The position numbers and the translations under genes were made by a program. From a virus (lineage: Duplodnaviria > Heunggongvirae > Uroviricota > Caudoviricetes), in IMG/VR virus record IMGVR_UViG_2713896899_000004: a stretch of DNA of 38,860 nt; one strand, written 5' to 3'. The notes beneath the pieces are model-generated. The model had not been told where the DNA came from, did no database searches, and saw only the letters and a list, made by a program, of their open reading frames with translations. Positions 938-37,746 of the stretch are shown here, piece by piece (position 1 is the stretch's first letter; each line of letters begins with the position of its first letter).

Positions 938-1171
938 ATGATGAAAAGATTATTTCTAACAATAGCTGTTGTTCTCTCTCTTACTGGCTGCCAGAAATTG
1001 CCGACACCTATATGTTATGGTGAGGCTATCATTGGTGGACAGGAGACAGTCATACCCATATATGCTGTTAAAAAAGTGAACGACTATACCTTATACAAAG
1101 CGGGTAGCATCTATAACTGGCGATGGGTTGGAGTAGGTGCTTTCTCATCAGTCCGTTGCAATGCTGAATGA
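938..1171 (+). CDS. Small lipoprotein (signal peptide plus lipobox LTGC)
   Basis: N-terminus MMKRLFLTIAVVLSLTGC is a signal peptide with lipobox Cys; mature part about 58 aa. Confidence 0.5.
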   Translation: MMKRLFLTIAVVLSLTGCQKLPTPICYGEAIIGGQETVIPIYAVKKVNDYTLYKAGSIYNWRWVGVGAFSSVRCNAE

Positions 1172-1252
1172 TAGGTAAGTACACACCTACAACAAAAGGG
1201 TGAAATGTGATATAAATCCGCCATCCCGATTTGACTTTTCATGGAGGAAAAC

Positions 1253-1576
1253 ATGTCGAACGAGATGGCGGGCGTTACAACAGAGCAAGTTGAGCGTATT
1301 GCCGCGATCGTTGCTCGGGAGGTTGTTGGCAAATTAGGTAAAGAGCTACGTGAAGAAATTGGCCAGGAGGTCAATGATCAGCTGAAAACCTACTTTGGTG
1401 ATATGACCCCGGCGCAACATAGTATTCAACACTCCAATCTGGACAAACTCCTTAACCGGTTAGATTCCATCTCCAGTGGGTTCTTTGGCGGCATTGTTTC
1501 TAAAATAACGTCGTTCATTATTACTGCACTGCTTTTGGGGTTAGCCGCGTATGGCGTAAAAAATGGACTGCAATAA
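1253..1576 (+). CDS. C-terminally membrane-anchored protein upstream of lysis genes (possible holin or lysis regulator)
   Basis: Start placed at second ATG (1253), which has RBS ggagga 5 nt upstream; track ORF begins at 1241. Single C-terminal TM segment SFIITALLLGLAAYGV; overlaps next gene start. Confidence 0.45.
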   Translation: MSNEMAGVTTEQVERIAAIVAREVVGKLGKELREEIGQEVNDQLKTYFGDMTPAQHSIQHSNLDKLLNRLDSISSGFFGGIVSKITSFIITALLLGLAAYGVKNGLQ

Positions 1577-2282
1577 CAGGAGATCAAGGATGAAGACTCC
1601 GAGAGGCATTCGTAATAATAACCCCGGTAATCTTGATAAAGGATCACCGTGGCAAGGTCTGGTTGCGAATCCAGACGAACCGCGCTTTTGCACGTTTAAA
1701 GACCCTGTTTGGGGGATTCGTGCGCTGGCGGTGACTCTAATTACCTACCACGATAAACGTCGCGCAAAAGACGGCTCAAGTATCGATACCATTCGTGAAG
1801 TTATTGAACGCTGGGCACCGCCGAATGAAAACAATACTGACGCCTACATTAATGAGGTGTCTAAGGCCGTTGGTGTAACCGCAGACATGATCATCGATCT
1901 GCATGATTACGACATCCTTCGACCTTTGGTTGAGGCAATCATTCGCCACGAGAATGGCCAGGGTCCGCTAAAAACGCTGAACACCTGGTATGCGGCAGAA
2001 GTTATTGAGGAAGGTCTGCGTCGGGCTGGCGTTGTTAAGCCGGTGAAAACCGTGAAGGCTGTTCCTGTAACTAAAGAAACAGCAGGCGCAACTGTTACAG
2101 CAGGTATTGGTCTGGCGCAGCTGGCCGATGTTATGCCGCAGGTTTCCGCTGCTATGGATAAGGCACAAGGCCATATCTCTAGCGGGGATACAGTACGCAT
2201 CATCTTCGGTATTGCCACTATTGTTGTGGCAGGATTCATTGCCTGGTCACAGGTAAGAAAACACCAGAAAGGGATGGTCTAA
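1563..2282 (+). CDS. Putative endolysin / peptidoglycan hydrolase with C-terminal TM segment
   Basis: Position directly upstream of the Rz/Rz1 pair (1-nt gap) and overlapping the upstream membrane protein; conserved-looking N-terminus RNNNPGNL; C-terminal hydrophobic helix. Function inferred mainly from gene order. Confidence 0.4.
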   Translation: MDCNNRRSRMKTPRGIRNNNPGNLDKGSPWQGLVANPDEPRFCTFKDPVWGIRALAVTLITYHDKRRAKDGSSIDTIREVIERWAPPNENNTDAYINEVSKAVGVTADMIIDLHDYDILRPLVEAIIRHENGQGPLKTLNTWYAAEVIEEGLRRAGVVKPVKTVKAVPVTKETAGATVTAGIGLAQLADVMPQVSAAMDKAQGHISSGDTVRIIFGIATIVVAGFIAWSQVRKHQKGMV

Positions 2283-2283
2283 T

Positions 2284-2535
2284 ATGCTAGGCAGCCTGAT
2301 GACAAAGCTAAAAGTTGCTTTGATTACGCTGGCTGCCGTTCTTTTCGTTCTGGTCGGCGCTTACACGATGGGCGGGAATGCAGCACGACGAGCAATGGAA
2401 GAGAAGGCAAAACAGGAAGACAGAAAACGACTTCAAAGCACAGTGGACGTCAAAAATGAAACACTTGATGAGTTACGGCGCAAGGATGCTTCTTCTGTTC
2501 ATCATGAGTTGCACAATAAGTGGTTGCGTGATTAA
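2284..2535 (+). CDS. Rz-like inner-membrane spanin (i-spanin)
   Basis: N-terminal TM helix (LKVALITLAAVLFVLVGAY) followed by charged coiled-coil-like region; a lipoprotein ORF starts inside it in another frame. Confidence 0.55.
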   Translation: MLGSLMTKLKVALITLAAVLFVLVGAYTMGGNAARRAMEEKAKQEDRKRLQSTVDVKNETLDELRRKDASSVHHELHNKWLRD

Positions 2536-2686
2536 GCCTCAACCCGCTGGTGTGCTTTTCTGCGATGCGGCTACACCGCTATACATCAGTCGTGATGATC
2601 TCATGACCGAAGAGACTGAAAGAGAGATGCTTTTACACAATATGATAGGGGAGCGATTGTGTGGATGGGGCAGAAAAGTGCCATAA
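2456..2686 (+). CDS. Rz1-like outer-membrane lipoprotein spanin (o-spanin), overlapping Rz
   Basis: Frame +1 relative to Rz; lipobox ISGC with a short mature peptide; starts within Rz and extends past its stop. Start codon uncertain (2456, 2468 or 2486). Confidence 0.5.
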   Translation: MKHLMSYGARMLLLFIMSCTISGCVIKPQPAGVLFCDAATPLYISRDDLMTEETEREMLLHNMIGERLCGWGRKVP

Positions 2687-2863
2687 TAAAAGTGGAGTTT
2701 TCTAACATAAAATTTGCATATTATTAGAGCACAAGGTAGATTTGGCACATGGATGTCAAGCAAATCATACCTTGTTTTAATACATCGACGCATACTCGTA
2801 GCCTCTAAACTCTGACAAGAGTCGCCGCTATGACATTAAGTTAATACCGGCTAAGGTGGACAC

Positions 2864-3247
2864 ATGCTGAACGAAAAACGTTCTATACAAACAATTCGCG
2901 ATTGCACGAGTGTTATCGCAACCCATGTGCTGAATAAGCGCAAACTTGAGGTGCGTAAACTTAACAACGATGCGACAGCGCCAAAAGACACTCGCTTCAT
3001 CGTCACTTTCAAAGACGATGTTGAGAATGCTGGTGCCAGTGTAAAACCGTTGGCTGAAGCGATTTTCCTGAACGATCGTGTGCGTTTCATTGTGAAGCCA
3101 GCAAAACAATACCCTGAATTAGCACGGTTTAGTGATCAATTCTCTGAAATTATTGAGAGTGCAATTCGCCGCTTTCTTAATACTCATGGTAGCATTGTCA
3201 GCAATACAACTGCTGATGGTACTGCTCTAAGATGGCACCTACACTAG
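2864..3247 (+). CDS. Hypothetical protein
   Basis: ORF with RBS aaggtgg upstream of ATG. Confidence 0.5.
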   Translation: MLNEKRSIQTIRDCTSVIATHVLNKRKLEVRKLNNDATAPKDTRFIVTFKDDVENAGASVKPLAEAIFLNDRVRFIVKPAKQYPELARFSDQFSEIIESAIRRFLNTHGSIVSNTTADGTALRWHLH

Positions 3248-3984: not shown

Positions 3985-3989
3985 AAATC

Positions 3990-4012
3990 AGGCGACTTTG
4001 GTCGCCTTTTTT
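3990..4012 (+). terminator. Rho-independent terminator
   Basis: Stem aggcgac / gtcgcct with loop tttg, followed by a T run. Confidence 0.6.
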
Positions 4013-4160
4013 GTTAACTGCCATTGATTCTCGCCTAAAAATTCTAAGGCAGCACCTACCATTTAACCTTTACACAGCAGCCGTAGGCATTTAGGCTATA
4101 TCACATATAAGAAAACAAGTTGTTTCAGACGATAATAATAGACGCAAAGGGAACTATCCA

Positions 4161-6370: not shown

Positions 6371-6429
6371 GAACCTGCTTCTGTATATAAATACTAAGTT
6401 ACTTATTATTATTTATACGGAAGCAGGTC
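6371..6429. repeat. Large imperfect palindrome (about 59 bp) containing an ATAAGT-type dyad
   Basis: ctgcttc...gtataaata arms mirrored around ctaagttacttatt; possible terminator or operator. Confidence 0.5.
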
Positions 6430-6545
6430 TTTTCTCTGCTGACTTCCCAGATACATTCCCTTCCGTTTCTACTTCCAAAAACTGCCACCAATCGCTATCA
6501 TCCGCTCATCGCGATAAGTAACTAACTACCTACCAGGTGAGCCAC

Positions 6546-7286: not shown

Positions 7287-7329
7287 CTAATACTAGAAAA
7301 CAATTTGTTTAAAAAACAAAGGAAAGCAC

Positions 7330-9933: not shown

Positions 9934-10008
9934 CAAACGCCGTTAAAATAAGTAGATGATTACTTATCTTTCTGTAAGAATACTTTCATCTGTTAGCTAG
10001 GAGTTGGT

Positions 10009-10785: not shown

Positions 10786-10841
10786 TCTCTCCGCGCGTCG
10801 TTTTTTTACGCAAACAATGATAGGTAAGTACAAGATTATTT

Positions 10842-11324
10842 GTGGCGGTGGTTGTGAAAGCTGATTTGTCAAAAATCCCTTCTATTTCAGGAAATAATGG
10901 TTATTCACTTCGTTGTGAGGAAGTAAAGATAAACGGTGAGTCGGCATACTGCAGCTACTCCGTTTGCCAGCACACCATTCTTGCCTTCAAAGAAAACCGT
11001 CTTCCTCGAACTTCATTCCAGTCGTGCGCAACCGCTATCAAAGCAGGCAAATGCAAGGCGTTAAAAATGATGGTTGAAGAGATTCGTAAAGGAGAATCTC
11101 TGTATTTCGAAGATATGACCGCGCTCATTAAGGAGGTTGAAGAACGGAATAAACAAGCCAGAACTATAAAACGAAAACGTGACAGTGTAACGATTAGTAG
11201 CATGGTTAAGAAGAGCGCCACATCACAAACAGCGATCACTGACGTGTATGCGGCGTTGCTTGAAGAAACAACAAAAGAAACACATGAGCAAATCGATCAA
11301 CATATGGAGGCAAAACAACAATGA
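10842..11324 (+). CDS. Hypothetical protein (Cys-containing N-terminus, coiled-coil C-terminus)
   Basis: ORF ends in an ATGA overlap with the ligase start; start codon uncertain (GTG). Confidence 0.4.
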   Translation: MAVVVKADLSKIPSISGNNGYSLRCEEVKINGESAYCSYSVCQHTILAFKENRLPRTSFQSCATAIKAGKCKALKMMVEEIRKGESLYFEDMTALIKEVEERNKQARTIKRKRDSVTISSMVKKSATSQTAITDVYAALLEETTKETHEQIDQHMEAKQQ

Positions 11325-13460: not shown

Positions 13461-13486
13461 ATGATAAGTATTTACTTACTTATCAT
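13461..13486. promoter_or_regulatory. Perfect dyad atgataagta-N6-tacttatcat (operator- or promoter-like)
   Basis: 10-bp arms are exact reverse complements; member of a dispersed ATAAGTA/TACTTAT family. Confidence 0.5.
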
Positions 13487-14246
13487 TTACGTATAAGATG
13501 ACTTTGTTTTCGTTGAGACGCGACTGTTTGAACTTAAATACAAGTGCAAACGAAGAAGTCTATCTGGCAGTAGCCTAATAAGCCAAACACCAGCGAGGTC
13601 AGTTTCCAGCCTCGTTACCGAAATGGGACACACTGAGCGAGTGTGATTGCAGAACGCAGGATAGGGCATAGACAGCCAAACCACTATGCCCTATTCGATG
13701 AAGTAACAGAATGGGCGGTTGGTATATTTTCAACTCCATATGACTCCCGGATTCTTAGCCACTGACCGCCCATCCTGTTACGTCATTTTGTTCAATTATG
13801 TCGTTTATACTGGGTTAAAAAGCGGCGACGTAGCCCGGCTGGTATGGTTAGCCAGCACACAACGTTGAGGCCATTACATTTTTATCAATTCTAAGGTTCT
13901 ATTCACAGAGATACCGGCGAGCGTTGATATGTAACATGTTGGGCAAACATTCAATCGGAGTAGTGGCCTCAACGTTGTGAAGACAGGATAGTTGTTGTAG
14001 GTTTAACCACTGTTGCCATTGGTGCCTGTTTTCACAACAAATGATTCCATACATCACATTGTATAAATTACAAAGTAGGTGCTGTCCTCAGAAACATCAT
14101 CTACTTAAAGAATTTGCCTTCTACTATTGAGCGAAGTCGAAAGCGTCTGGCACTAACGAAAAGTGCAAGTAGCGGTGCGTTTCCTGGCAGAAACTAAACC
14201 GTCGCGATTGGCACTGTTGAGTAATAAATACTGGCAGTGCCGAATT

Positions 14247-14710: not shown

Positions 14711-14712
14711 GA

Positions 14713-14790
14713 CACAGCGTTGAGCGGTTTGGCCTTTTAATCACCCAGATTAAGACTCCGCTAACATAAACCAGACCGCTCAACGCTGTG
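14713..14790. repeat. Long hairpin (about 20-bp stem, 38-nt loop) immediately 3' of tRNA-Ser
   Basis: cacagcgttgagcggt (14713-14728) is the exact reverse complement of 14775-14790. Confidence 0.6.
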
Positions 14791-14864
14791 ATTGACAATT
14801 ACGGCAGACGTTCTTAACCATAGCTTGCTAACATCCTAGCAACACTTTTTTCAGCGCAAAATTC

Positions 14865-14887
14865 AAAGGGGCTTCGGCCCCTTTTTT
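14865..14887. terminator. Bidirectional rho-independent terminator
   Basis: aaaggggc-ttcg-gcccc-tttttt; closes the tRNA island on the plus strand and the minus-strand ORF 14903-16165. Confidence 0.65.
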
Positions 14888-14902
14888 GTTGAACAGTGCA
14901 AT

Positions 14903-16165
14903 TTACTTTACATAGTCGCCCAGTTTTAATATTTCGCGCTTATATTCTTTAACCATGTCACAGGATTCAATGTAAATTCGATGTAAAAGACTGCCGTTAT
15001 CTTTATTTTCATTTATCTTAATTAGTGCTAATTTATATTCATAGTCATCAAATGCCACAATTAAATGGTGGCCTGGGATTATATCTTCGTCACTCTTAAA
15101 GTATATATCTTCAAGTATGTAATCTAGTTGATTAGATTTTCTTTTCTCGATGTAATCTTCAGCCATAGCTATTACATCATTCCTGTCATTTAACCTGTTT
15201 TTTTCGGAAGGCACATCTTCGTAATGTTGCACGATTGAACAACCAATAAGGCGTGGGATGTAAACGTCAAAATGAGTAACTCTATCATTCGCGGTTTTAA
15301 GTAGTTCCTCAAAGTAGTTTCTTACATGTAAAGGCAACTTCTCAAAGTAATCATTAATTATAGGAGAACAAGGAGTTTTATAATTCATAAGAACCGACGG
15401 TACGAGCTTTGGGTGTCGAAACATCCAGTCCCTTTTAACGTCCGATGGAACATAATAACTTTTAATGATATTATCAAAATAATTTATCATTCGAGATTTG
15501 AATATTTTGTTGAATCTAAGGTTTATGAATGTATCCAGATAAGGCATATTTGAATAAGCATCATCAAAAAATATTTCATCATTGAAAAAATCATATTTAT
15601 TCAATAAACAACACAGTTTTTCCGAATTAATATGTTCACAATAATCGATTTTTAATCCAAAGATAGCAATGATCAACTTCATCTGAGGTGGGATTTTAAA
15701 AATTAATTGTGACACATACGCTCTTTTTTCCTTGAGACATTCCCCATCAATATAAAATGAACCATCCACATACTCAAATATATTAATAATATGCTTCACA
15801 TACTGTATTACCTCATGCTGTCTTACCAATGGGTAATATAGTCTATGTAACTCATCGCTGTTTAAATTAATTTTGTGTTTATCGATAATTTGTTTTGCAA
15901 GAAGACATAACTCATCATGTTGATTTAATAAGGAATCAAACCATTGTTTAAATGCACTCTTTCGCATTTCGAACAATGATTCAGTTGTTAATTGAAGGGC
16001 TGAAAAAGCTGCTTTTGCACTTTTTCTCGCTTCGTAGGCATTCCATGCTGTTGCTATAAAAGCAAATGCTGTAGCCAATGTTCCAACAGTTTGACCATTT
16101 AAAACAACCCAATCCCAAAAAATGACGGTGAGCAGTAGTATAATAATGAAAATTAAAAAAGGCAT
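14903..16165 (-). CDS. AT-rich membrane-anchored protein of unknown function (candidate defence / abortive-infection cargo)
   Basis: 420-aa ORF on the opposite strand from almost all other genes; N-terminal hydrophobic helices then a large Asn/Lys/Tyr/Phe/Ile-rich soluble domain; strongly AT-rich; own terminator. Confidence 0.55.
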   Translation of the reverse strand: MPFLIFIIILLLTVIFWDWVVLNGQTVGTLATAFAFIATAWNAYEARKSAKAAFSALQLTTESLFEMRKSAFKQWFDSLLNQHDELCLLAKQIIDKHKINLNSDELHRLYYPLVRQHEVIQYVKHIINIFEYVDGSFYIDGECLKEKRAYVSQLIFKIPPQMKLIIAIFGLKIDYCEHINSEKLCCLLNKYDFFNDEIFFDDAYSNMPYLDTFINLRFNKIFKSRMINYFDNIIKSYYVPSDVKRDWMFRHPKLVPSVLMNYKTPCSPIINDYFEKLPLHVRNYFEELLKTANDRVTHFDVYIPRLIGCSIVQHYEDVPSEKNRLNDRNDVIAMAEDYIEKRKSNQLDYILEDIYFKSDEDIIPGHHLIVAFDDYEYKLALIKINENKDNGSLLHRIYIESCDMVKEYKREILKLGDYVK

Positions 16166-16339
16166 GTATGTATTTCACTCTACTAACTATAAAATATTAG
16201 GGTAATGTTAACCAAACAATGCCTTAATTAATAGATTGATCGAGGCTTTAATAGCTTTATAATGCAGACTGCAATGATAAGTATGCACATACCTATCTTC
16301 TTTGTAAGTAAAGTTGCATATCAATTCTATGAGGTAACA

Positions 16340-16698: not shown

Positions 16699-16796
16699 AC
16701 TGAAAATGAGTTACTTTTACTCTTGATCCTATAAGAATCTATGCCTAATATACTGTTTACTTATACAGTGAATCGGCGTAACTCGGTGATTGTCAT

Positions 16797-17900
16797 ATGA
16801 AAAATAGCTTTGACAGAGCGCGCGCTGCGGAGAACACCTCAAAAGAGGCGATTGAGTATCTCGAAAGAGCATCTCAAATGCAGGCCGTTATGATCTCGCA
16901 GGTTAGCAATGACATGAGATTCTCGGACGCTTTCATGTTATTCACTCGCTTATCTCTGCTGATAACCAGACGTCGGCCAGAGATCGCTGTTCATTGTATT
17001 TTGATACATGTTTTGCCGCACATTGCCGATGTAAAAGTAAGTGACATTAATAGGTTCATGGTGAACCAGCTGGTCAACCCACTAATACTGGATGGCAAAA
17101 TTGTTATGGGCCGCCGCGTTTTCTCTCTGATGAAGCAGTTCCTTAGCTGGTGCGCCTTCCAGGGGATGATAGACGTGTCACCGTTAAACGATATGTCACT
17201 AAACAAAGTTGCCGGTGGCGCAAAGCCCACACCTCGCGAGCGGAAGCTGACCGACGCAGAGGTATGGGTGTTCTGGAATATATGGGACTACTTCAATGTG
17301 TGCGCTGGTACAAAATGGGCGGCCAGGCTGTGTCTTGTATCAGCAAGACGACCTGACGAAGTACTGCGGGCTAAAAAAAGTGAGTTCAATCTTAAGCGTG
17401 GAGTTTGGAATCAAGGCAAGAGAAACAAGTCAGCACGTGAGCATTCGCTGCCTTTAAGCACATTAATGCGCACATGCATTGAAGAGTTGTTCGAATACGG
17501 TAAAGACAGCCAGTGGCTCGTGCCTTCGAATAAAAAAATCGGGAAAGACCTTCCTATGTCTAAAGTGGCAATAGCCCAGGCATTACGTCGTATTCTGGAA
17601 CGACCAGAACTGATGGAGCTTGAGCCATTTACACCCCGAGATTTGCGCCGTACTGCGCGTAGTTACTTCCCAGCATTAGGCATAAGCCAGGAGGTATCAC
17701 GCAAAATCATGAACCACAGTCTTGAGGGGATAGATCGGGTATACGATCGACACGATTATATGGATGAGATGCGAGACGCCTTAGAAAGTTTCTCGACGTA
17801 CATCGCATCAATCGTAGAGCAACCGGATTTAGACGAAATTGACCACAAATTCAAGGGAGATCGTCTATCGACAGAGCTTATTCGTGTAAATTTTTCATAG
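16797..17900 (+). CDS. Tyrosine recombinase / integrase (P4-like C-terminal catalytic region)
   Basis: C-terminal FTPRDLRRTARS ... NHSLEG ... VYDRHDYMDEMR matches the Arg/His/Tyr catalytic pattern of P4-type integrases; N-terminus atypical. Confidence 0.65.
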   Translation: MKNSFDRARAAENTSKEAIEYLERASQMQAVMISQVSNDMRFSDAFMLFTRLSLLITRRRPEIAVHCILIHVLPHIADVKVSDINRFMVNQLVNPLILDGKIVMGRRVFSLMKQFLSWCAFQGMIDVSPLNDMSLNKVAGGAKPTPRERKLTDAEVWVFWNIWDYFNVCAGTKWAARLCLVSARRPDEVLRAKKSEFNLKRGVWNQGKRNKSAREHSLPLSTLMRTCIEELFEYGKDSQWLVPSNKKIGKDLPMSKVAIAQALRRILERPELMELEPFTPRDLRRTARSYFPALGISQEVSRKIMNHSLEGIDRVYDRHDYMDEMRDALESFSTYIASIVEQPDLDEIDHKFKGDRLSTELIRVNFS

Positions 17901-18281
17901 AGACTTTATGGCCTCAACAACCTTTTGTGATGCGCCTTTCTCTTTACCGAATCGCTCGTTATATGCAGCAAGAACCTGTTTTTCGTCCTCGTTAAGAGGA
18001 GCGGTGCCTTCTTTGTATAAAAATGCTGCGAGTTCAGGTTGGCGTTCTTCCAGCACCATCATCATAAGACGACTTGGCTCAATACCCAGCGCCAGCGCCA
18101 ACGGACGAACCTTATCGATAGGCAAAGGAATTTTGCCACTTTTAATTAAAGAAAGGTTGTTGGCATTTTTATAACCAATAAGTCTGGCTATTTGGGCCTG
18201 ACTCATAGGTGAGGATTCAATCAGCCCTGCGATAAAAGCAGCATAGCGACTTTCTATAAATTCAATCTTGTTGTCAGACAT
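17895..18281 (-). CDS. HTH (XRE/Cro-CI type) transcriptional regulator, candidate repressor
   Basis: N-terminal MSQAQIARLIGYKNANNLSLIKSG helix-turn-helix; divergent from downstream plus-strand genes; no protease domain (128 aa). Confidence 0.6.
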   Translation of the reverse strand: MSDNKIEFIESRYAAFIAGLIESSPMSQAQIARLIGYKNANNLSLIKSGKIPLPIDKVRPLALALGIEPSRLMMMVLEERQPELAAFLYKEGTAPLNEDEKQVLAAYNERFGKEKGASQKVVEAIKSL

Positions 18282-18532
18282 TGTTACAACCTTTGCGCGT
18301 TTAATTCTCTATGGTAAGTGCTTACCGATATTACATCAAAGGTTAGGGTTGTAAAGCTATTATCATTTTTTTCGGCAGGCACTTGTAAGACCGAGCAAAG
18401 GTCCATGCATGGAGAAAAACTAGCCCAAAATAGGTAAGAAAATTAACTTGCATCTGATATAGATGTATTCAGTATTGATACAAATTTTAGTAGTATTCCT
18501 TACCATAGTATAAGTTAGAATGGATTGATTGA
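18282..18532. promoter_or_regulatory. Divergent control region between repressor and plus-strand operon, with GGTAAG/CTTACC dyads
   Basis: 251-bp intergenic region containing palindrome ggtaag-tg-cttacc (18314-18327) and further ggtaag / ataagtta half-sites. Confidence 0.45.
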
Positions 18533-18745
18533 ATGAAAACCACTATTTCCAGCCTAATCGCTCTTGAGATCGGACACGTACAGAAATTAGCTGATGAGTG
18601 TGTAGCTGACATCCTCACCGATCTACCGAATGAGCAGATTCAGGTTGGTGTGAATGACACAACTGGCTTTATATTCGAACTTAACAACAAACGCTTCACG
18701 CTTCTCAATACCGGCTCCGGGTCTTTAGCCGTCAGAATCTGTTAA
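18533..18745 (+). CDS. Hypothetical small protein (possible Cro-like partner by position)
   Basis: 70-aa ORF divergent from the HTH regulator; weak RBS. Confidence 0.35.
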   Translation: MKTTISSLIALEIGHVQKLADECVADILTDLPNEQIQVGVNDTTGFIFELNNKRFTLLNTGSGSLAVRIC

Positions 18746-18843
18746 CCCCTCTTCTCCCTGCGCGAATGGCTTAGTTCCCTGTTCGCGCAGTGCTACATTA
18801 AACACACTAGTAAATAATTTGTTTTCATAACAAAGGATTAGCC

Positions 18844-20952
18844 ATGTCTAAAAAACGTTCCATCAAAGAGGTTCAGGACTTCCGTGACAGTGTAAAACGA
18901 GTAGTCGCTCTCCTTTCAGGTAAAAACATCCCTGTTGCAGAACGAGGGGACGACGCTTATGTACGCTATAACGATGATGGAGAGCCAATTCTCGTAAACA
19001 TCCCATCAATCCCGGATAACGCAACACCGGCATTGATGAATGCTGTGCGCGGATTTCTCGATCATGAGGTTGCTCACATTTTGTTTACCGATATTCGTGT
19101 GTCCAACAAAATGAGAGAAAAAGGACGCGTTCCTTCCTGGTCGCTATGGAATGCCTTAGAAGACGTGTTCATCGAGCGAAAAATGGGGCAGGTCTTTAAC
19201 GGAACAAGACGTAATCTGATGGCAACTCAGCGCCTTATAATCGAAAAAGTCTTTAAACCAAAGGCTTCAGAGGCTATTGCTTATTGTGGCAAAGATCAGC
19301 GCGCGCTTTTTCTAAACTTCTTTCTCTGTCCGGTTGTAAGAGCCTGGGATGGCCAAGCACCGTTCGTAGATTTCATGGATGAATATTGGCCTGTCATTGA
19401 GAAACCAATTTCATTATTAAAAGAACATGGTATCGATGTGGCCGTGCGTAACATGTCTTGCACCGAGGATTGTGTAAAGGTGGCTGCGACCATAGCTAAG
19501 CTCCTCAAAGACACTGAAAGTGAAAGCAAAGGTAAGGAGTCAGCTCCGGGAAAAACTTCTGATCCTTCAGACGCTGACCAGACGGATGCCTCTGGAGAAA
19601 ACAATGAAGACAACGAAGATCATGAGACACCCTCAGAGATAGATAATCACAAATCTATCAAATCAGAATCACATAGTAAGCACAAGCATGATAATAACGA
19701 CAGTGATGATTCAGATAATTCTGAATCATCAGAAACAATATTCGATGATACAGAAAATGATAAAGAGGTATCAGATTCTGATGCTTCTGATAACGCGGCG
19801 TCAGAATCATTAACCGCTGACCACGAAAAAAGAAAAACGACAGAAGACGGCTCTTCAGATATTCCAACTCCGTCAAAAATGAGTCTGGAAGAGGCTTTAG
19901 AGGAGCTGGATAGCATAGAAGATGAAGTCGGAGGCATGACAGAAGATGCTCTATCCGAAACGATTAAAAGCGAGTTAACAGAAAGCTCGAAAAGCGAATA
20001 CAGGCCATACAATCGCTCATACGACTTCATCGGCTCGATTGATCAGGCAGAAGCCCATATCAAACGGCTTATTAAAACATTCTCCGATATTGATTTAGGA
20101 GGATATCCAATCAGCCGCTATCGCATCGTTCCTGAAGGCAACCAGCTCTTCGACAAATATATTGAAAAGCATCTTTCGTCAGGTGTTTCGTCGACGCTAG
20201 CAAAAGACCTGGAACGTGCAATAGCAAGCAGAAACAGAGTTCAGTTTATACCGGGCCAGCGTCGGGGGCGCATTCATGGCTCTAGTATCTACAGATTAGC
20301 AATGAATGATGATCGCGTGTTTCGTAAAAAAGAGGAATCTAAAGCCGTTAACGCCTGTGTTCAACAAGTGATTGATTTATCGGGTTCAATGAGTGGCGAA
20401 ACGATAAAACTAGCTCTTGCAAGTGCATATACCATCGCCGATGCTCTTGATCGAATAAATGTTCCCAACATTATCACCGGCTTCACTACATTTGGCAGTC
20501 ATCTGGCAGCGATAGAACTTAAGGCTATCAAGTATGAGTTCTCTCGCTTTGAATCTTTAATGCTACCTATCATCAAAAATTGGAATGAAAAAGCAAATTC
20601 TCGCGAAGTTCGCTCACGTATGGGGTGCGTAGGCTACACATTCCCACTTCTTAATAACGTGGATGGTGAAAGCATAGCCAGCCTTGCATCGTTATTTTCC
20701 GGTCGCATGGAGGACAGGAAGATCATGCTTGTTCTGAGCGATGGCGAGCCGCTGGCTGTTGGGAGAGGTTTTGACGCTCATTTGCGTTCGGTTGCGAAGC
20801 AAATTGAAACGCAGACTGACATTGATTTGATGGCAATTGGCATAATGACTGACGCACCGGAGAGATTTTACTCAAATCATGCCCTGGTAACGAGCGTTGA
20901 TAGTCTTGGTTCATCTGTAGTTACTGAACTATCTCGTATCATTTTGAAGTGA
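18844..20952 (+). CDS. von Willebrand factor A (vWA) domain protein with acidic Ser/Asp-rich linker (CobT-like)
   Basis: MIDAS motif DLSGSMSGE and downstream VLSDGEP; long acidic low-complexity segment in the middle; RBS aaaggatt upstream. Confidence 0.6.
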   Translation: MSKKRSIKEVQDFRDSVKRVVALLSGKNIPVAERGDDAYVRYNDDGEPILVNIPSIPDNATPALMNAVRGFLDHEVAHILFTDIRVSNKMREKGRVPSWSLWNALEDVFIERKMGQVFNGTRRNLMATQRLIIEKVFKPKASEAIAYCGKDQRALFLNFFLCPVVRAWDGQAPFVDFMDEYWPVIEKPISLLKEHGIDVAVRNMSCTEDCVKVAATIAKLLKDTESESKGKESAPGKTSDPSDADQTDASGENNEDNEDHETPSEIDNHKSIKSESHSKHKHDNNDSDDSDNSESSETIFDDTENDKEVSDSDASDNAASESLTADHEKRKTTEDGSSDIPTPSKMSLEEALEELDSIEDEVGGMTEDALSETIKSELTESSKSEYRPYNRSYDFIGSIDQAEAHIKRLIKTFSDIDLGGYPISRYRIVPEGNQLFDKYIEKHLSSGVSSTLAKDLERAIASRNRVQFIPGQRRGRIHGSSIYRLAMNDDRVFRKKEESKAVNACVQQVIDLSGSMSGETIKLALASAYTIADALDRINVPNIITGFTTFGSHLAAIELKAIKYEFSRFESLMLPIIKNWNEKANSREVRSRMGCVGYTFPLLNNVDGESIASLASLFSGRMEDRKIMLVLSDGEPLAVGRGFDAHLRSVAKQIETQTDIDLMAIGIMTDAPERFYSNHALVTSVDSLGSSVVTELSRIILK

Positions 20953-26014: not shown

Positions 26015-26107
26015 CCCTTATCCCCTCATATCCCCTATCCTCGAACTCCTTGCCTTATCATCACAATGATATAATCAATATAAAATGATAAGTAAAAAGG
26101 AAAGCAC

Positions 26108-26544: not shown

Positions 26545-26575
26545 GATAGATAATAAGTAAGTACTGATCTATCAT
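26545..26575. promoter_or_regulatory. Dyad tgatagat-aataagtaagtactg-atctatca upstream of the SSB gene
   Basis: 8-bp outer arms are exact reverse complements; inner ataagtaagtact core. Confidence 0.45.
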
Positions 26576-26656
26576 TTAACAGCTCGAAAGAGCCACGAAT
26601 GAACGAAAGCCCAACGCGCATAGCGCCATCGGCCAAATCACAACAAGGAGAAACAC

Positions 26657-30026: not shown

Positions 30027-30031
30027 ACACA

Positions 30032-30056
30032 AGGCGTCCACAGGACGCCTTTTTTA
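30032..30056 (+). terminator. Rho-independent terminator
   Basis: aggcgtcc-aca-ggacgcct followed by TTTTTT. Confidence 0.7.
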
Positions 30057-30070
30057 TCTCTTGAAAATAT

Positions 30071-30090
30071 ATAAGTACTTACTTATCATT
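30071..30090. promoter_or_regulatory. Dyad ataagta-ct-tacttatcatt, about 30 nt upstream of ORF 30119
   Basis: Shares the 14-mer tacttacttatcat with 13473-13486; TTGAAA lies just upstream. Confidence 0.5.
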
Positions 30091-31195: not shown

Positions 31196-31248
31196 TTCTC
31201 GTTATTATCACACACAAGAAAACAATTTGTTAAAAGGTTAAGTTAATT

Positions 31249-32073
31249 ATGCCCAACCACATTACAAACGAAATCCGAGTCATAGGTGGTACAAATAAAC
31301 AACGCTTAGATTTCATACGTGCCATAACTAACAAAAAAGGTCTAATTGACTTTAATACCATTTGCAGACGTCCGAAAAGTATAGAAATGGAAGAAAACAA
31401 TCATATCAGGCGCATGGCCTCTGCAATGGCGGGCGAAACAGTTTACGACTACATGTTCGGTGAATTAAAGACTCCAGAGCAGGTCGAATTAGCTATGCGT
31501 GAATCAGGAATGACACGCAAGGAAATTCGCAAAATCAAAGAGCAGGCTCTTATGCGGCTTGAGAATTATCGTCGCTATGGCTATTACTCGTGGTTTGACT
31601 GGTCGCGAGCTAATTGGGGAACAAAATGGAATGCCTACAACATCGAAATGCCCGTAAAACGTATCCCTACACGTATTAAGTACGGCCATAATTTCCGCCA
31701 TACACACGTTCGAGCATATGCAAAACGAATCTATAAAAAACGTCTTGCAAGACATGCCGCAACTGGTGGTGAGTTGGTGATTCGCTTTGAAACAGCCTGG
31801 TCTATGCCAAAACCAATTTATCAAGCGATGGCTAGAAAGTTCCCGCACCTTGAGTTTGTAATACGTTATGCAGACGAAGACTTCGGCAATAACTGCGGAT
31901 TCATTTTACTTCGCAACGGCAAATGGGAATATGACTACATTGCACCGGCGAATAACGAACAATCGTCAGAAGAAAAAATCAAATGGCGCAAGTTCGCCTT
32001 TGAGTTATGTTGTCCGGGTATTACTCCACAAGAATACGGTCTAAATGAAGAATACGAATACGCCGGATATTAA
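31249..32073 (+). CDS. Hypothetical protein
   Basis: 274-aa ORF, basic, Trp/Tyr-rich; no motif recognised. Confidence 0.5.
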   Translation: MPNHITNEIRVIGGTNKQRLDFIRAITNKKGLIDFNTICRRPKSIEMEENNHIRRMASAMAGETVYDYMFGELKTPEQVELAMRESGMTRKEIRKIKEQALMRLENYRRYGYYSWFDWSRANWGTKWNAYNIEMPVKRIPTRIKYGHNFRHTHVRAYAKRIYKKRLARHAATGGELVIRFETAWSMPKPIYQAMARKFPHLEFVIRYADEDFGNNCGFILLRNGKWEYDYIAPANNEQSSEEKIKWRKFAFELCCPGITPQEYGLNEEYEYAGY

Positions 32074-33758: not shown

Positions 33759-33813
33759 TCGCCTATTCATAACTAACAAAATAAGTAAACACTAACCACA
33801 AAAGGAAAAACAC

Positions 33814-34089
33814 ATGAGAGTTTTAGTTCGAATCGTTACCAGCACTGTCTATGACGTGTTTCCGCTTTTTATGGTCAAAGCCGATGGTCTTAACGACGAA
33901 GAAACTGACGCACTGATCCAGCGTATTCTCGTTGAATATACAGGTCATGACGCTGATTCAGTGATGGTTGATGATGATGGTGTTTGTTGGCATAACGGCA
34001 ACTGTTGGTACGTAGAAGAGACTCAACAAATCAGTGATGAAGATGCCGCACATCTTGAGCGTATTTTAAGCATCAGCACTTTTGAGTGA
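33814..34089 (+). CDS. Hypothetical acidic protein
   Basis: Conserved aaaggaaaaacacATG start context; 91 aa. Confidence 0.5.
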   Translation: MRVLVRIVTSTVYDVFPLFMVKADGLNDEETDALIQRILVEYTGHDADSVMVDDDGVCWHNGNCWYVEETQQISDEDAAHLERILSISTFE

Positions 34090-34128
34090 GTTTACAGTAA
34101 AATTTATATAAGTTAGTATCTACCTATC

Positions 34129-34308
34129 ATGAAGATTTTTATTGAATACTTGTTACTCATCGTGTCAATAGCTTTTGTCATCGACTGCATTTTCACTGGT
34201 GTCATTCGTAAAGTCTTTTCCCCGGTGAACGACGTAGTCATAAACGCTTTGGCTATCGTGCTCGTATTTAATTCAGCATTTGATGTAATCAAAGAGGTGG
34301 CAGCATGA
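34129..34308 (+). CDS. Small membrane protein (59 aa), not in the ORF track
   Basis: ATG at 34129, hydrophobic helix (LLLIVSIAFVIDCIF), ATGA overlap with the next gene. Confidence 0.35.
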   Translation: MKIFIEYLLLIVSIAFVIDCIFTGVIRKVFSPVNDVVINALAIVLVFNSAFDVIKEVAA

Positions 34309-34640: not shown

Positions 34641-34852
34641 TGGCATTAACACTGGCAGGTCTGGAAATCGAGAAAACAAGCGGATACTGGCGTGCTAAGG
34701 GTTTCAAGCAGCCTGGCGTTCTTGAGCGTCTGGAACGTGAAGATGGGTATATCGTCCACCAGCGGCGTGAATGGCGTATGTACGATCCAGAAACAGGAAA
34801 ACTGACTACAAAAGCCGGAACACTTTGGGGTCTGTTGAAGAAAATACACTAA
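34640..34852 (+). CDS. Hypothetical protein
   Basis: 70-aa ORF translationally coupled to the upstream gene. Confidence 0.45.
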   Translation: MALTLAGLEIEKTSGYWRAKGFKQPGVLERLEREDGYIVHQRREWRMYDPETGKLTTKAGTLWGLLKKIH

Positions 34853-34898
34853 ATGCAAACTGACTGCGGCTCGTTCCGCAGTCATATTTCATAGTCGT

Positions 34899-35432
34899 CA
34901 CCGCTGACAGCATACACAATCAACTGCCGCTGATAGCATATCGAGAGTCTATCTCACCGCTCACAGCATACTTTACTCGATTTTTTACCGCTGACAGCAT
35001 ACTTAAGACATTGCATGAATAATGTGTACCGGTATGGGTATAACCAGAACAAAATTACCGCTGGCAGCATACGAAGGTCTGACATATGCCATTAATTACC
35101 GCTGATAGCATATCCAAACAAAAATTCCTCAATAAAACACCGCAGACAGCATACGTTCTATCAGGGAGCAGCAGGCAATAAATGCCTTTCACTACAAGCA
35201 ATCAGCGCAATAGCAATAGAATGTTAGTGAGCGCAAACCTATATGGAATGCACTCTTCGAGGTTAGTAACCACTGGGGAGGTATGACAGAGCATTGAGTG
35301 GTGATAGATGATTTACCGCTCACAGCATACGTTCATCTCACTAGACCGCTGGTAGCATATCTTTAACCGTTCACAGCATACTTTTCAGAAAAATAGCCGC
35401 TGATAGCATACATTTCACCGCTGACAGCATAT
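34899..35432. repeat. Iteron array, about 12 copies of a 17-bp repeat (consensus yACCGCTGACAGCATAC), downstream of rep (copy-control, incA-like)
   Basis: Copies read at 34899, 34924, 34955, 34986, 35056, 35097, 35138, 35314, 35344, 35365, 35395 and 35416, in both orientations with irregular spacing. Confidence 0.8.
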
Positions 35433-36526
35433 CAAAGCAGTTTGAGACTATTGGAAAGGATCTCAATCATCTTGATATTTTCAGGCGTCAAATTCTGCGA
35501 AAGTTCAGTTATCTTGTTGATAATGTTCTGTTTAGCATCAATTTCCCCGGCTTTCTCATCTGGTTTTTTGGGTTCGATGTCTTCAGGTTTTGGCGGTGCG
35601 ACTTTAAGTTTTGGATTGCGGCTATGAATCTGGATATAGATCGACCGCCCTCGCTTAATCTCGCTGTATTCGAGATAGCCCAAATCTTGGAGAGCTTTTA
35701 AGCCGTTACGTATAGTCTGATTCTGCGAGCTTACATTCCTGCTACTCAAATTGAGTCGCGCACGCAATCGAGCAAGCGATACCGGCGCAGGCTTGGTTGG
35801 AAGACTTTCGATGAAGGTGTACAGAGCCTGTGCTGTTTCTTTGCGTGGTAGCTTATTGATAACCTTTAACTGCAAAAGAACCTTATGGTCAAAGCGATAT
35901 AGTTCGGCCAGCTTCGGTTCTGCATAGAACACCACCGTATCTTTCTGCTCGTTGTAGTCCACGCTATTGATGAGGTGCACCATCAGAAGCGAGATCTTGT
36001 TAGAGCCGTCGACGTTCTTTTCTTCATACGTTCTCTGGAAAGACAGAGTTGTACGCATGATCTTCAAAAGACTGTTTGTAAGCCGGTCGCGGAGTGTTTT
36101 GCGGATCTGTGACGATGGATAGCCACAAAACTTCGCAAATTTCGTGATGCTTAACTCGACACGACCGTTAGGTTCGCCGTATTCTGCCAGCGAACGCACA
36201 ACGCCCACCCACGTTTTGAAATCATGATCCATGTCGAGACGAGGACCGGTTATCTTGATATCGGAATAGCCTTCAGAACGGGCTACTTCGAGCTGAACAA
36301 GCTCCTTTGAAGCATCGATCTCATTTGGCTTGTTACGCTTGCTGTATTTTGTCCCCTTGAGCGTGGGCACGAACAACCCCAGCCGCATCAACGCAATTGG
36401 TTGGACTGTATTGTTGCTATTAGGGACAAGTTCCCCTGTGTACAATTCAAGGGAACCTTCTTCAAAGTTGTCGAGATTATCTTCTACTTCTTTGTTATTT
36501 TTACCTTTTTTATTTTTTGTGGACAT
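35432..36526 (-). CDS. Iteron-binding replication initiator (Rep, plasmid RepA-like)
   Basis: Gene sits between two iteron arrays. Start set at internal ATG (36526) with RBS aaagg, because the track's 40-aa N-terminal extension reads through iterons. Basic protein, Arg/Leu-rich C-terminus. Confidence 0.6.
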   Translation of the reverse strand: MSTKNKKGKNNKEVEDNLDNFEEGSLELYTGELVPNSNNTVQPIALMRLGLFVPTLKGTKYSKRNKPNEIDASKELVQLEVARSEGYSDIKITGPRLDMDHDFKTWVGVVRSLAEYGEPNGRVELSITKFAKFCGYPSSQIRKTLRDRLTNSLLKIMRTTLSFQRTYEEKNVDGSNKISLLMVHLINSVDYNEQKDTVVFYAEPKLAELYRFDHKVLLQLKVINKLPRKETAQALYTFIESLPTKPAPVSLARLRARLNLSSRNVSSQNQTIRNGLKALQDLGYLEYSEIKRGRSIYIQIHSRNPKLKVAPPKPEDIEPKKPDEKAGEIDAKQNIINKITELSQNLTPENIKMIEILSNSLKLL

Positions 36527-36545
36527 GTGGACACCTTTGTCATTC

Positions 36546-36648
36546 AACCGCTGACAGCATACTTGATTTGCCGCTGGCAGCATACCAAAAACAGTTGGCA
36601 GCATACGGCGAACCGTTGACAGACTATCAATTACCGCTGGCAGCATAC
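36546..36648. repeat. Iteron array, 4-5 copies of the same 17-bp repeat, upstream of rep (origin iterons)
   Basis: Copies at 36546, 36569, 36592 (degenerate), 36611 (degenerate) and 36632. Confidence 0.75.
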
Positions 36649-36688
36649 ATGAACATGGCTTCAGACCAGTCGTGGCGCGGCTTACAGC

Positions 36689-36770
36689 GATCGGGGATCT
36701 TATTTGATCTATACAAGGATCTATCTATGGATCTCTTTATTAGGATCTATCCTGTGGATATGTGAATAAT
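36689..36770. promoter_or_regulatory. Origin-associated GATC cluster (six GATC in about 60 bp, five GGATCT-type heptamers) plus DnaA-box-like tgtggatat
   Basis: GATC at 36689, 36696, 36706, 36718, 36729 and 36744; tgtggatat (36754-36762) matches the DnaA box complement TGTGGATAA at 8 of 9 positions. Confidence 0.6.
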
Positions 36771-36847
36771 TAAAACAGGCATTTACTACCTTCGGCGCAC
36801 CTGGTGGGTTATCGTTGCCTCGGCTAACAATCACAGAAAAATGACAT

Positions 36848-37492
36848 ATGGATCTAAAACGCACGCGCTGGGTTCGTCGTCTTGAAGACGGCTCCTACAC
36901 TATCGAATCAAATTCCAACCTGAATAAGCAGAAGTTGCTTTGTGACATCTGCGGTATAGCGGCGAAGTGCCCGATCTACGAAACCAGAATTAAACTTGAT
37001 AAGGCTGGTGTGAATTTTCATTTAAACAGTTGCATCAGGTACGTTCCATTGCTCGCATTTCGTAAACCGATCATCGGATTGGATGCCCCCTACTTCAACA
37101 CACTCCGTTCAGGTGTGACGTGGCGAGATCGTTTATCACCAGACAAGCTGATTTGCCTTGTATCCGCAGACACAGGGAAAATCATCCGTTTTGGGAAAGT
37201 AGACAAGGTTTACTCAGGTCCAGTAGACGAAATGTTGCGGAAACACAGCCGGTTTAATCATCTCTGTATGGGTGGTGAGAAAATCGAAAAGGTGGAAGAA
37301 GTGATCCGTAAATCCTACGGACACTTCCTGACCAAAGATAGCCTGCTCACCGCAATCTACATCAGACATGTAAAACGTGAGTTCGACCTCGAATACCACA
37401 GTGAAGAAGAGCTTAACCTTGTTGACCCACGTCCAAAAGCTGGCGTCATAAGCATAAACGCAGCGCGTAAAAAGCCCACTGACGCGCTGTAA
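36848..37492 (+). CDS. Hypothetical protein
   Basis: 214-aa ORF; no motif recognised. Confidence 0.5.
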   Translation: MDLKRTRWVRRLEDGSYTIESNSNLNKQKLLCDICGIAAKCPIYETRIKLDKAGVNFHLNSCIRYVPLLAFRKPIIGLDAPYFNTLRSGVTWRDRLSPDKLICLVSADTGKIIRFGKVDKVYSGPVDEMLRKHSRFNHLCMGGEKIEKVEEVIRKSYGHFLTKDSLLTAIYIRHVKREFDLEYHSEEELNLVDPRPKAGVISINAARKKPTDAL

Positions 37493-37746
37493 CCCTCCAG
37501 ATCGCATATTGGCGTAGATAAAATCTACGCCTCCTCAAAATAGCTCTCATAGCGTTCTACAGTGATCCTGTCTTATTTTTAGTCATACAGACAAGCAAAA
37601 TTGCGCCACAATATATAGGTATATACTTACTTATAAATTTTGTATATTAAGACGCTCGTTTCATTTCTAACATACCGTTATGCATAGTTGTTTACCTTCT
37701 CATTGCTCTTAAAATTTGTATCAAAATAACCACAAAGGAAAAACAC

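Follow-up and report, generated by a model that had tools for sequence, protein, structure and literature searches.

Dispersed TAAG-type palindromes in an SSU5-like phage-plasmid, candidate operators of an XRE-type prophage repressor

Introduction

The plasmid prophage P1 is controlled by the C1 repressor through more than a dozen operators scattered over ~100 kb, and its maintenance genes are controlled separately. The gp71 repressor of mycobacteriophage L5 acts at ~30 so-called stoperators, asymmetric 13-mers that lie in one orientation relative to transcription, and the repressor of Streptomyces phage phiC31 binds conserved inverted repeats (~18 or more), most of which are intergenic and upstream of early genes. 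Here, we describe a dispersed family of ATAAGTA/TACTTAT palindromes in 38,860 nucleotides (nt) of DNA from a virus of the Caudoviricetes (IMG/VR record IMGVR_UViG_2713896899_000004); this whole stretch is called the window throughout. Judged by its alignments, the window consists of ~38.7 kb from an SSU5-like phage-plasmid, with an inverted IS2 end on either side: from ~1170 to 38790 it shares 95–97% identity with the phage-plasmids Escherichia phage Cyrano (pLF82; 96%), CMS-2020a and PhiR41_1, and ~80% with Salmonella phage SSU5 over the same stretch (megablast). The palindromes are probably dispersed operators of a prophage repressor, with the XRE-type helix-turn-helix (HTH) protein encoded at 17895–18281 as their binder.

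Such a system would work like the dispersed operators of P1 C1, L5 gp71 and phiC31 but would belong to none of them. As in P1, the prophage is a plasmid, one repressor is proposed for many dispersed units and the maintenance genes stand apart; C1, however, has 283 amino acids (aa) and an asymmetric 17-mer as its site, whereas the candidate described here is a 128-aa XRE-type HTH protein and the site is a palindrome. Moreover, the late genes of P1 are under indirect Lpa control, whereas here sites also lie between late genes. The likeness to L5 consists in ~30 copies in short intergenic spaces of early and late regions, many of them with no obvious promoter, and in one HTH repressor proposed to silence the prophage through a block of both initiation and elongation. 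In contrast to stoperators, the present sites are palindromic and strand-neutral, and most of them overlap promoter-like sequences, a roadblock function being a proposal here. With phiC31 the element has in common a palindromic operator that is repeated genome-wide and mostly intergenic, but repressor family and site sequence are unrelated, and phiC31 has an actinomycete host and an integrated prophage. The predicted fold, the palindromic operator and a repressor gene divergent from a lytic operon also recall the CI-Cro systems of lambda, 434 and P22 and the controller C-proteins of restriction-modification systems, and a site at the regulator's own predicted promoter would imply autoregulation, as in CI-Cro. 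The differences are that no cleavage domain was detected in the protein, that ~30 loci rather than one immunity region are involved, and that the sites consist of tandem 4-bp units with variable spacing. In the open-access literature we found no paper on the motif or on the wiring of the lysis-lysogeny switch in SSU5-like elements; the bare word ATAAGTA led to unrelated papers only, and GTAAGTACTTAC to nothing.

Results

A palindrome of tandem TAAG units between genes

ATAAGTA, counted on both strands, occurs 18 times in the window, compared to 4.31 ± 2.0 copies (maximum 9) in dinucleotide shuffles, and ATGATAAGTA with at most one mismatch occurs 16 times where 2.9 copies are expected. A first-pass annotation, made from the letters of the window alone, had pointed out the dyad family, had suggested intergenic motif discovery and a scan with shuffled controls, and had named a frequency no higher than in composition-matched shuffles as the outcome that would speak against it. 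When the intergenic segments alone (5.2 kb, 39.7% GC) are shuffled one by one, which controls for their AT-richness, the 16 copies stand against 1.3 ± 1.2, with a maximum of 6 in 500 shuffles. When all 6-, 7- and 8-mers are scanned without bias for intergenic enrichment, a word of the family comes out on top at each length: ACTTAT/ATAAGT, ATAAGTA/TACTTAT and ATAAGTAA/TTACTTAT. Fifteen of the 18 ATAAGTA/TACTTAT copies fall within the intergenic 15% of the window (binomial p = 2e-10). Maximal-order Markov word statistics are uninformative in this case because sub-words of the motif are themselves enriched.

The consensus is a palindrome of 20–26 bp with the halves ATrATArGTAAGT and ACTTACyTATyAT, made of tandem TAAG units. 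With a symmetric 26-bp position weight matrix (PWM), 15 sites of the window reach at least 12 bits versus 0.07 in shuffles, and 14 of the 15 are intergenic; in the intergenic segments themselves, 12 PWM matches are observed compared to 0.07 after shuffling. A PWM derived from the Klebsiella element pJN2-26 alone, for which the most over-represented 8-mer of that genome was the seed, yields 15 matches of at least 10 bits in the window (0.32 expected). These are the same sites, except that a palindrome inside a gene at 19636 takes the place of the lone half-site at 26085. When the heptad pair ATAAGTA...TACTTAT is searched with at most three mismatches in 14, spacers of 2, 6 and 10 bp yield 15, 11 and 9 matches, each against ~1.5 expected, and no other spacer is comparably enriched; this 4-bp series reflects the tandem TAAG units of the consensus palindrome. 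Left and right half-sites score alike, and lone half-sites have no consistent strand bias in four genomes. A further palindrome, GATAGAT-N-ATCTATC, occurs once in the cobT-like gene (19636–19661) and once as the outer shell of the dyad before the single-strand-binding protein (SSB) gene (26545–26575).

The sites of the window, with scores from the 26-bp PWM, are as follows.

1168–1193: ATGATAGGTAAGTAcacACCTAC, 60 nt before the start of the holin gene (1241); 22.0 bits, 21.0 with the Klebsiella-only PWM, left half strong; orthologues at 26654 in Cyrano and 69446 in pJN2-26
6384–6409: ATAAATA-ctaagt-TACTTAT, upstream of gene 6537; 14.9 bits; the TATTAT of its right arm is a −10-like hexamer
6511–6536: GATAAGTA-actaac-TACCTAC, directly before the GTG start 6537; 18.6 bits; at ~+15 of a predicted TATCAT promoter; orthologue at 31293 in Cyrano
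9945–9970: perfect heptad dyad ATAAGTA-gatgat-TACTTAT, upstream of gene 10009; 23.9 bits; conserved island versus SSU5 and pJN2-26; the extended −10 TGTAAGAAT that comes after it is conserved too
10817–10842: ATGATAGGTAAGTAca, 12 nt from the GTG start 10842; 17.1 bits; shares a 17-mer with 1167–1183
13461–13486: best site, perfect 10+10 palindrome ATGATAAGTA-tttact-TACTTATCAT; 30.1 bits; heads the non-coding stretch that leads to the tRNA cluster; kept in SSU5 (41773) and pJN2-26 (83379)
16274–16299: ATGATAAGTA-tgcaca-TACCTATC, before the glutaredoxin gene; 27.7 bits; at ~+16 of the predicted promoter TTGATC-16-TATAAT (16236–16263), 10/12
18307–18332: ctatGGTAAGTGCTTACCgatatt, where transcription from the HTH gene's own promoter is predicted to start; 13.7 bits
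20963–20988: GATAAGTA-ac-TACTTATG, heptads 2 bp apart, before gene 21048; 13.6 bits; conserved island; the start point predicted for the extended −10 promoter TGATATATT is ~34 nt downstream
26085–26094: lone half-site ATGATAAGTA, an exact 10-mer, 13 nt before the start codon 26108; just downstream of the predicted extended −10 promoter TGATATAAT (26067–26075)
26550–26575: ATAATAAGTAAGTACTGATCTATCAT, upstream of the gp32-like SSB gene; 28.8 bits; inside an outer GATAGAT...ATCTATC palindrome; overlaps the predicted promoter TAGATA-17-TATCAT; kept in SSU5 and pJN2-26
30064–30089: ATAAGTACTTACTTATCAT; 29.9 bits; fills the spacer and −10 of the predicted promoter TTGAAA-17-TATCAT (10/12), right after the intrinsic terminator 30031–30051; kept in SSU5 at 55699
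33778–33803: half-site AAAATAAGTAAAC, a weak member, 24 nt upstream of the start codon 33814; 12.9 bits; orthologue at 59069 in Cyrano
34105–34130: ATAAGTT-agtatc-TACCTATCAT; 23.2 bits; overlaps the predicted promoters TTTATA-16-TATCAT and TTTACA-17-TAGTAT
37612–37637: ATAGGTA-tatact-TACTTAT, upstream of sbcD (37747); 24.2 bits; conserved island with diverged flanks in SSU5 and pJN2-26, then a conserved TG-type −10

All sequences listed in the first-pass annotation are present, but two coordinates need a shift of one base: the 17-mer AATGATAGGTAAGTACA has its second copy at 10816–10832, not 10815–10831, and the GGTAAG dyad GGTAAGTGCTTACC lies at 18313–18326, not 18314–18327. Its list lacked the strong members at 6384–6409, 6511–6536 and 16274–16299. 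The description of the motif as upstream of most transcription units is fair, since by our own tally from the intergenic sequences and PWM matches a site is present in ~14 of 22 sizeable gaps before genes; in four others there is a different palindrome. A TACTTAT at 16758 lies in the spacer of a LexA-box-like CTGT-N8-ACAG at 16753–16768 and is not a member.

Three known operators were compared with the family. The LexA (SOS) box has its sole CTGT-N8-ACAG match at 16753–16768, a separate element, and the consensus lacks CTGT/ACAG arms. The 19-mer Fur box GATAATGATAATCATTATC has no match with up to three mismatches, its likeness being limited to TGATAA, and the asymmetric 17-mer of the P1 C1 operator, ATTGCTCTAATAAATTT, has no window match with up to three mismatches either.

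Position relative to predicted promoters

Four plus-strand sigma-70-like matches overlap or abut sites (16236–16263, 26547–26575, 30061–30089 and 34091/34103–34130), and they include both top plus-strand matches of the window (10/12 each). A site-by-site search places the centre of 12 of the 15 sites between −35 and +17 of a predicted −10 that is accompanied by a −35 or a TG. The centres cluster at −19.5, where TATCAT of the right arm would serve as the −10, at −30 to −35, where two of four have an extended −10, and at ~+15. Positions over the spacer and −10 and past the start point fit a repressor operator rather than an activator site. The motif was also considered as a promoter in its own right, with ATGATA as −35 and TATCAT as −10, and rejected: in the perfect palindrome these hexamers are only 14 bp apart, and the sites range from −35 to +17 and come as near as 12 nt to start codons. 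The first-pass idea of a single regulon of operator or promoter sites holds in so far as there is one operator-like family at predicted promoters, given the palindromic consensus, the near-exclusive intergenic placement, the conserved islands and the overlap with sigma-70-like promoters; it does not hold in the sense of one motif for all units, since other units have a second motif or a LexA box.

Conservation in close relatives

Over the whole genomes of Cyrano, SSU5 and pJN2-26, words of the motif belong to the most over-represented 8-mers. The family ranks first in pJN2-26, where GTAAGTAC has 26 copies versus 1.3 expected and is followed by AGTACTTA and AGTAAGTA. Each genome carries ~30 sites of at least 12 bits, and in Cyrano 29 of 30 such sites fall into the 13% of the genome that is non-coding. 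In orthologous intergenic alignments with SSU5 (80% identity) and pJN2-26 (~78%), the dyad is preserved while the sequence around it has diverged. Such conserved islands are seen before orf10009, before cobS and before sbcD, behind orf13164, and in the region of the HTH promoter; the flanks of different copies are unrelated to each other. In the HTH promoter region, the −35, the −10 and the dyad are common to E. coli and Klebsiella, whereas the rest has diverged; the Klebsiella orthologue of the GGTAAG dyad reads GGTAAGTACTTACC, the core of the family, which bears out its inclusion in the first pass. Sites of the late region lie in the terminase/portal gap, after the major capsid protein gene, before tail genes and before the holin gene.

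A candidate repressor beside the integrase gene

The following features surround the candidate repressor gene.

17895–18281, minus strand: XRE-type HTH protein of 128 aa, candidate repressor
18328–18355, minus strand: predicted sigma-70 promoter of the HTH gene, TTTACA-16-TAATAT, 9/12, both hexamers kept in pJN2-26
18533–18745, plus strand: open reading frame (ORF) of 70 aa, divergent from the HTH gene and first of the cobT-dnaE operon; PHROG 2627, function unknown

The HTH protein matches PHROG 8, 'transcriptional regulator' (E = 6.6e-12), and stays below the threshold of Pfam HTH_19 (18.9 versus 30.2 bits). Its AlphaFold model (predicted local distance difference test, pLDDT, 82) has helices at 27–33 and 40–46, the latter being the predicted recognition helix. 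All top Foldseek neighbours of the model are XRE-type DNA binders, namely restriction-modification controller C-proteins, a Salmonella phage repressor, the lambda and 434 repressors, and HigA (probability 1.0, E at least 7e-3). Neither Pfam nor PHROGs detected an S24 peptidase or LexA-like self-cleavage domain in the 128-aa protein, so that induction must work in another way than by cleavage as in lambda CI. The 70-aa ORF occupies the position of a Cro-like or early gene; its synteny with the HTH gene is kept in all lineages examined, and no DNA-binding domain was detected in its product (Pfam, PHROGs).

In its expression and distribution, the HTH gene resembles a lysogeny gene. Its counterpart CYRAN_45 (98% identity at the protein level) is expressed 10-fold above background in Cyrano lysogens, whose clearly expressed genes are mainly minus-strand or moron genes (PMC9928086, Table 1). 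Ciprofloxacin induces Cyrano (PMC9928086).

Homologues of the HTH gene adjoin the integrase gene in ~840 plasmid-state relatives. Relative to totals of an SSU5-type marker protein, the gene was counted in 92/92 cases in Enterobacter, 63/63 in Yersinia, presumably pMT1-type plasmids, and 348/352 in Klebsiella, where the counts come from broad protein searches and the denominator may take in unrelated elements. Essentially all plasmid-state relatives have the gene; it is missing only from SSU5, a phage obtained from free virions, in which the integrase-HTH module is absent altogether. The tRNA-Asn/cobT junction of SSU5 is contiguous in none of 585 matching plasmids; because the junction is unique among them, SSU5 looks like a recent deletion derivative, which would account for the sites it has kept.

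The integrase gene (16797–17900) converges on the HTH gene with a 6-nt overlap. Directly upstream of it lies the LexA-box-like TACTGT-N8-ACAGTG (16751–16770), with a predicted promoter TTGATC-17-TAATAT just upstream. A box of this kind is kept at the integrase gene in pJN2-26 and in the two relatives labelled L011 and L014 below, with a different spacer, and Cyrano has a second LexA-like box upstream of a LexA-like S24 peptidase gene. SOS-induced convergent transcription could be a route of induction.

The motif changes with the lineage

Relatives (loci L010 to L015) keep the synteny of cobT-like operon, small ORF and divergent HTH gene, and in distant ones the motif changes. In the Acinetobacter plasmid L010, AGTCAG-TA-CTGACT provides the top words, with 8–9 copies in 40 kb and no TAAG-type site. 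Cupriavidus L013 has AGTCAG-N6-CTGACT, the unassigned contig L015 AGTCAG-CG-CTGACT and Acinetobacter L012 AGTAAG-YG-CTTACT; Klebsiella quasipneumoniae L011 retains GATAAGTAA. In L010, L013 and L015, the architecture is unchanged and TCAG replaces TAAG. Since the motif varies by lineage, its binder should be encoded by the element and co-evolve with it, rather than be a host factor or a general promoter feature. In L012 and L013, the top words were replication iterons and a par-site palindrome, which were set aside before the dispersed motif emerged. Five further loci (a C. taiwanensis prophage, L016, and the short metagenomic contigs L017–L020) showed no recognisable dispersed motif; they are other kinds of element or too short for covariation.

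A site of the lineage's own class lies 30–120 nt upstream of the HTH gene in all eight lineages examined. At four positions in or beside the predicted recognition helix 40–46, the residues of the HTH protein split with the class of the motif: position 38 is N, once Y, in the TAAG class versus R/A/P in the TCAG class, position 44 is L/F versus M, position 49 is K/R versus E/N/A, and position 51 is P/H/K versus R. The HTH protein of L010 is 42% identical to the E. coli protein and 30% identical to that of Cupriavidus, yet it has these residues and the TCAG class in common with Cupriavidus. This covariation ties the HTH protein to the sites in a manner that is suggestive only.

L013 and L015 carry a separate palindrome, ATCATATGAT, that clusters around the ParA/MipZ gene and is more likely a centromere. 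In L012 (Acinetobacter plasmid p5388_2), the operon that diverges from the HTH gene encodes a sigma-70 family sigma factor (1004–1669) beside a gene for a MoxR-type ATPase; the annotations of the enterobacterial elements show no counterpart of the sigma factor.

A second palindrome and replication iterons

A second dispersed palindrome, AAACAAnTTGTTT or in extended form (AAG)AAAACAAnTTGTTT(A), has four copies in the window versus 0.35 expected.

4113–4125, 7298–7310, 18812–18824 and 31220–31232: copies of the second palindrome

Each lies 29–48 nt before a start codon, namely that of parA, the helicase gene, cobT or orf31249; none of these units has an ATAAGTA dyad. Cyrano, SSU5 and pJN2-26 contain 11–14 copies per genome, and the Acinetobacter and Cupriavidus relatives nearly none. 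The second palindrome may represent a second regulon or promoter class. At 34895–35430, downstream of a Cra-like gene and beside repA (35432–36646, minus strand), there are ~12 iterons (ACCGCTGACAGCATAC and variants), which account for the intergenic-enriched words ACCGCT and CAGCATAC.

Ends and gene content of the window

The first 76 nt (1–76) and the last (38785–38860) are one IS2 end, present twice in inverted orientation (73–76 bases each). Nucleotides 1–73 match solely where a plasmid bears an annotated IS2, as in thousands of IS2-bearing plasmids, and in SSU5-like plasmids without IS2 the match begins at nt 74. Because a match from base 1 requires an annotated IS2 and all other SSU5-like plasmids match from base 74, the window ends are assigned to IS2. 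The terminal inverted repeat therefore stands outside the ATAAGTA/TACTTAT family, in which the first pass had placed its palindrome on account of half-sites. The window would thus be either the part of an SSU5-like phage-plasmid that separates two copies of IS2 or a contig whose ends broke within them. The left copy breaks a homologue of SSU5_023, and the right copy provides the stop codon of a truncated sbcD (347 aa versus 361 aa in Cyrano).

The first three ORFs (110–1171) are protein-level homologues of SSU5_023–025. According to the Cyrano annotation, the genes follow in the order holin, endolysin, spanins, ParA, helicase, primase, ligase, tRNAs, integrase and 'putative repressor', and then cobT/cobS-like, Pol III alpha, UvsY, gp32-like SSB, exonuclease, RecA-like, RepA and SbcD. 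From the best dyad to the tRNA-Asn/Thr/Ser cluster, 800 nt (13487–14246) are non-coding; within them, SSU5 and pJN2-26 share the block TTGTTTTCGTTGAGACGCGACTGTTTGAAC (~13510–13540) almost unchanged. The tRNA cluster has long inverted repeats on either side, at 13858–13982 and 14714–14800 (regions 13487–14246 and 14711–14902), with no match to any Rfam family; in the whole window, Rfam finds the three tRNAs and nothing else. Between tRNAs and integrase gene, a low-GC island (~36%) at 14903–16165, minus strand, carries a 420-aa ORF that is absent from Cyrano and SSU5, has no Pfam match and only a weak PADLOC match to PtuB (E = 5e-4); the island has the look of a variable slot for cargo or defence genes. 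A near-identical translation initiation context, ACAAAGGAAAaCACATG, recurs at many genes, e.g., at 7330, 21048, 26108, 26657, 30119, 33814 and 37747, and the same context (AGGAAAACACATG) is the top 10-mer of the K. quasipneumoniae relative L011.

Discussion

The family is established, with its statistics, placement, conservation and lineage-specific variants; that the HTH protein binds the palindromes, and does so as a repressor, is what we infer. In the plasmid-prophage state, a dimer of the protein would occupy the ~30 dispersed palindromes and occlude the core promoters of lytic transcription units, and it would act as a roadblock where a site lies near a ribosome-binding site, between late genes or without a nearby promoter. 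Through 18307–18332, an autoregulatory operator in this scheme, the protein would repress its own promoter, and its loss or inactivation would free all units together. Sites are found at phage-type units, i.e., lysis, replication and recombination, and outside the window at head and tail genes. The plasmid maintenance units have no dyad, parA having a different palindrome and repA having iterons, and we propose that plasmid functions escape control by the repressor.

A bolder version, which we consider rather improbable when all its parts are taken jointly, would run as follows. One small XRE repressor would directly gate practically every phage unit of a 100-kb phage-plasmid through ~30 palindromes, late genes included and many of them as roadblocks. 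The repressor would be shut off by SOS-induced convergent transcription from the integrase gene, itself controlled by a LexA box, and not by cleavage or a classical antirepressor. The tandem 4-bp units (TAAG/TCAG) would form a code that can be re-programmed by few residues of the reading head.

Several observations weigh against repression by the HTH protein at these sites. The distance between the heptads changes in steps of 4 bp, a variation that should be too much for a rigid dimer, and several sites consist of a single half-site. Late structural genes also have sites between them, where promoters are not normally expected. The promoters used here are consensus predictions, and promoter-like matches are rarer in the window than in shuffles (15 versus 38 and 20 versus 30). 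The residue covariation comes from eight non-independent lineages, and in L014, where TATGTA arms are common, the HTH helix differs (KYQNQVSF) but the HTH-adjacent site is still of the GGTAA type. SSU5, finally, keeps 28 good sites (at least 12 bits) without a homologue of the HTH gene, which suits a recent deletion and a different binder equally well. The suggestion of the first-pass annotation that this regulator binds the sites is backed circumstantially by the own-class site in eight of eight lineages, the residue split, the expression in lysogens and the near-universal presence of the gene in plasmid-state relatives, and is opposed by SSU5.

The sites could instead be operators of a different element-encoded protein, with the HTH gene as only one of its targets; we regard this as unlikely. 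The 70-aa ORF product as a Cro-like partner, the conserved minus-strand regulator CYRAN_114/SSU5_121, which is encoded outside the window, and a KorB-like ParB in the role of a global regulator are candidates. Besides SSU5, a site 28–39 nt upstream of parB in Cyrano (105104) and pJN2-26 (34778) would suit such a protein, and divergence in step with the motif across distant lineages would be expected of any protein that the element encodes. However, the uniqueness of the SSU5 junction among 585 plasmids makes the loss look recent, so that the sites may not yet have decayed, and the HTH protein is the only one whose reading-head residues track the motif class. ParB is further disfavoured because the parA unit of the window has no site and because L013 and L015 have ATCATATGAT at the ParA/MipZ gene as the likelier centromere; for the 70-aa product, the lack of a detectable DNA-binding domain argues against binding. 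A quite small chance is left to the view that the palindrome is a positive control element, i.e., an activator site or phage promoter box near −30 that replaces the −35, like the T4 MotA box, and that would turn on the units once the prophage is induced. The sites at 9945, 13461, 20963 and 37612 are indeed centred −30 to −35 relative to −10s without a good −35, two of them extended by TG, and the downstream −10 is kept across genera. An activator would not be expected over the spacer and −10, where 6384, 26550, 30064 and 34105 are centred at −19.5, nor at ~+15 as in 6511, 16274 and 26085, nor at the start point itself as in the HTH promoter. Moreover, extended −10 and 10/12 promoters (16236, 30061) should fire without one, and the several sites that lie 12–28 nt from a start codon fit occlusion.

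It is very improbable that the palindromes act as RNA, i.e., as intergenic hairpins serving as weak terminators, processing sites or translational operators, and the evidence favours double-stranded-DNA operators. The sites do lie between co-directional genes and often near a ribosome-binding site, their right flanks are T-rich, and the copy at 13461 folds at −11.3 kcal/mol (z = −8). However, only two of eight sites fold better than shuffles, the other six reaching −0.4 to −4.2 kcal/mol, and differences between the arms are non-compensatory: in our own tally from the site lists, an A.C mismatch in the RNA of mixed dyads is about as common as a G.U pair (~8 versus 6), and each arm keeps its sequence and not just its pairing. 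Copies also lie in divergent promoter regions (HTH/orf18533 and uvsW/parB), there is no strand bias, no Rfam family matches the sites, and no site is among the terminator-like matches of the window scan. That the motif has no function and reflects AT-rich composition or duplicated spacers can practically be dismissed. Intergenic DNA is AT-rich and two sites have an identical 17-mer, but the intergenic shuffles described above already contradict this explanation, for the word copies as well as for the PWM matches, and the PWM from another genus finds the same sites, which have unrelated flanks and form conserved islands across genera.

SSU5-like phage-plasmids are very common in clinical Enterobacteriaceae and include pLF82/Cyrano and the ~110-kb Klebsiella elements, as well as pHCM2 of Salmonella Typhi. 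For these elements, an operator consensus together with the HTH protein as candidate repressor makes the lysis-lysogeny switch testable, and both can help to annotate the transcription units and immunity groups of hundreds of plasmids. The missing repressor module may explain why SSU5 was recovered as a free phage, and the TAAG and TCAG variants of the different lineages provide a natural experiment on the evolution of HTH specificity.

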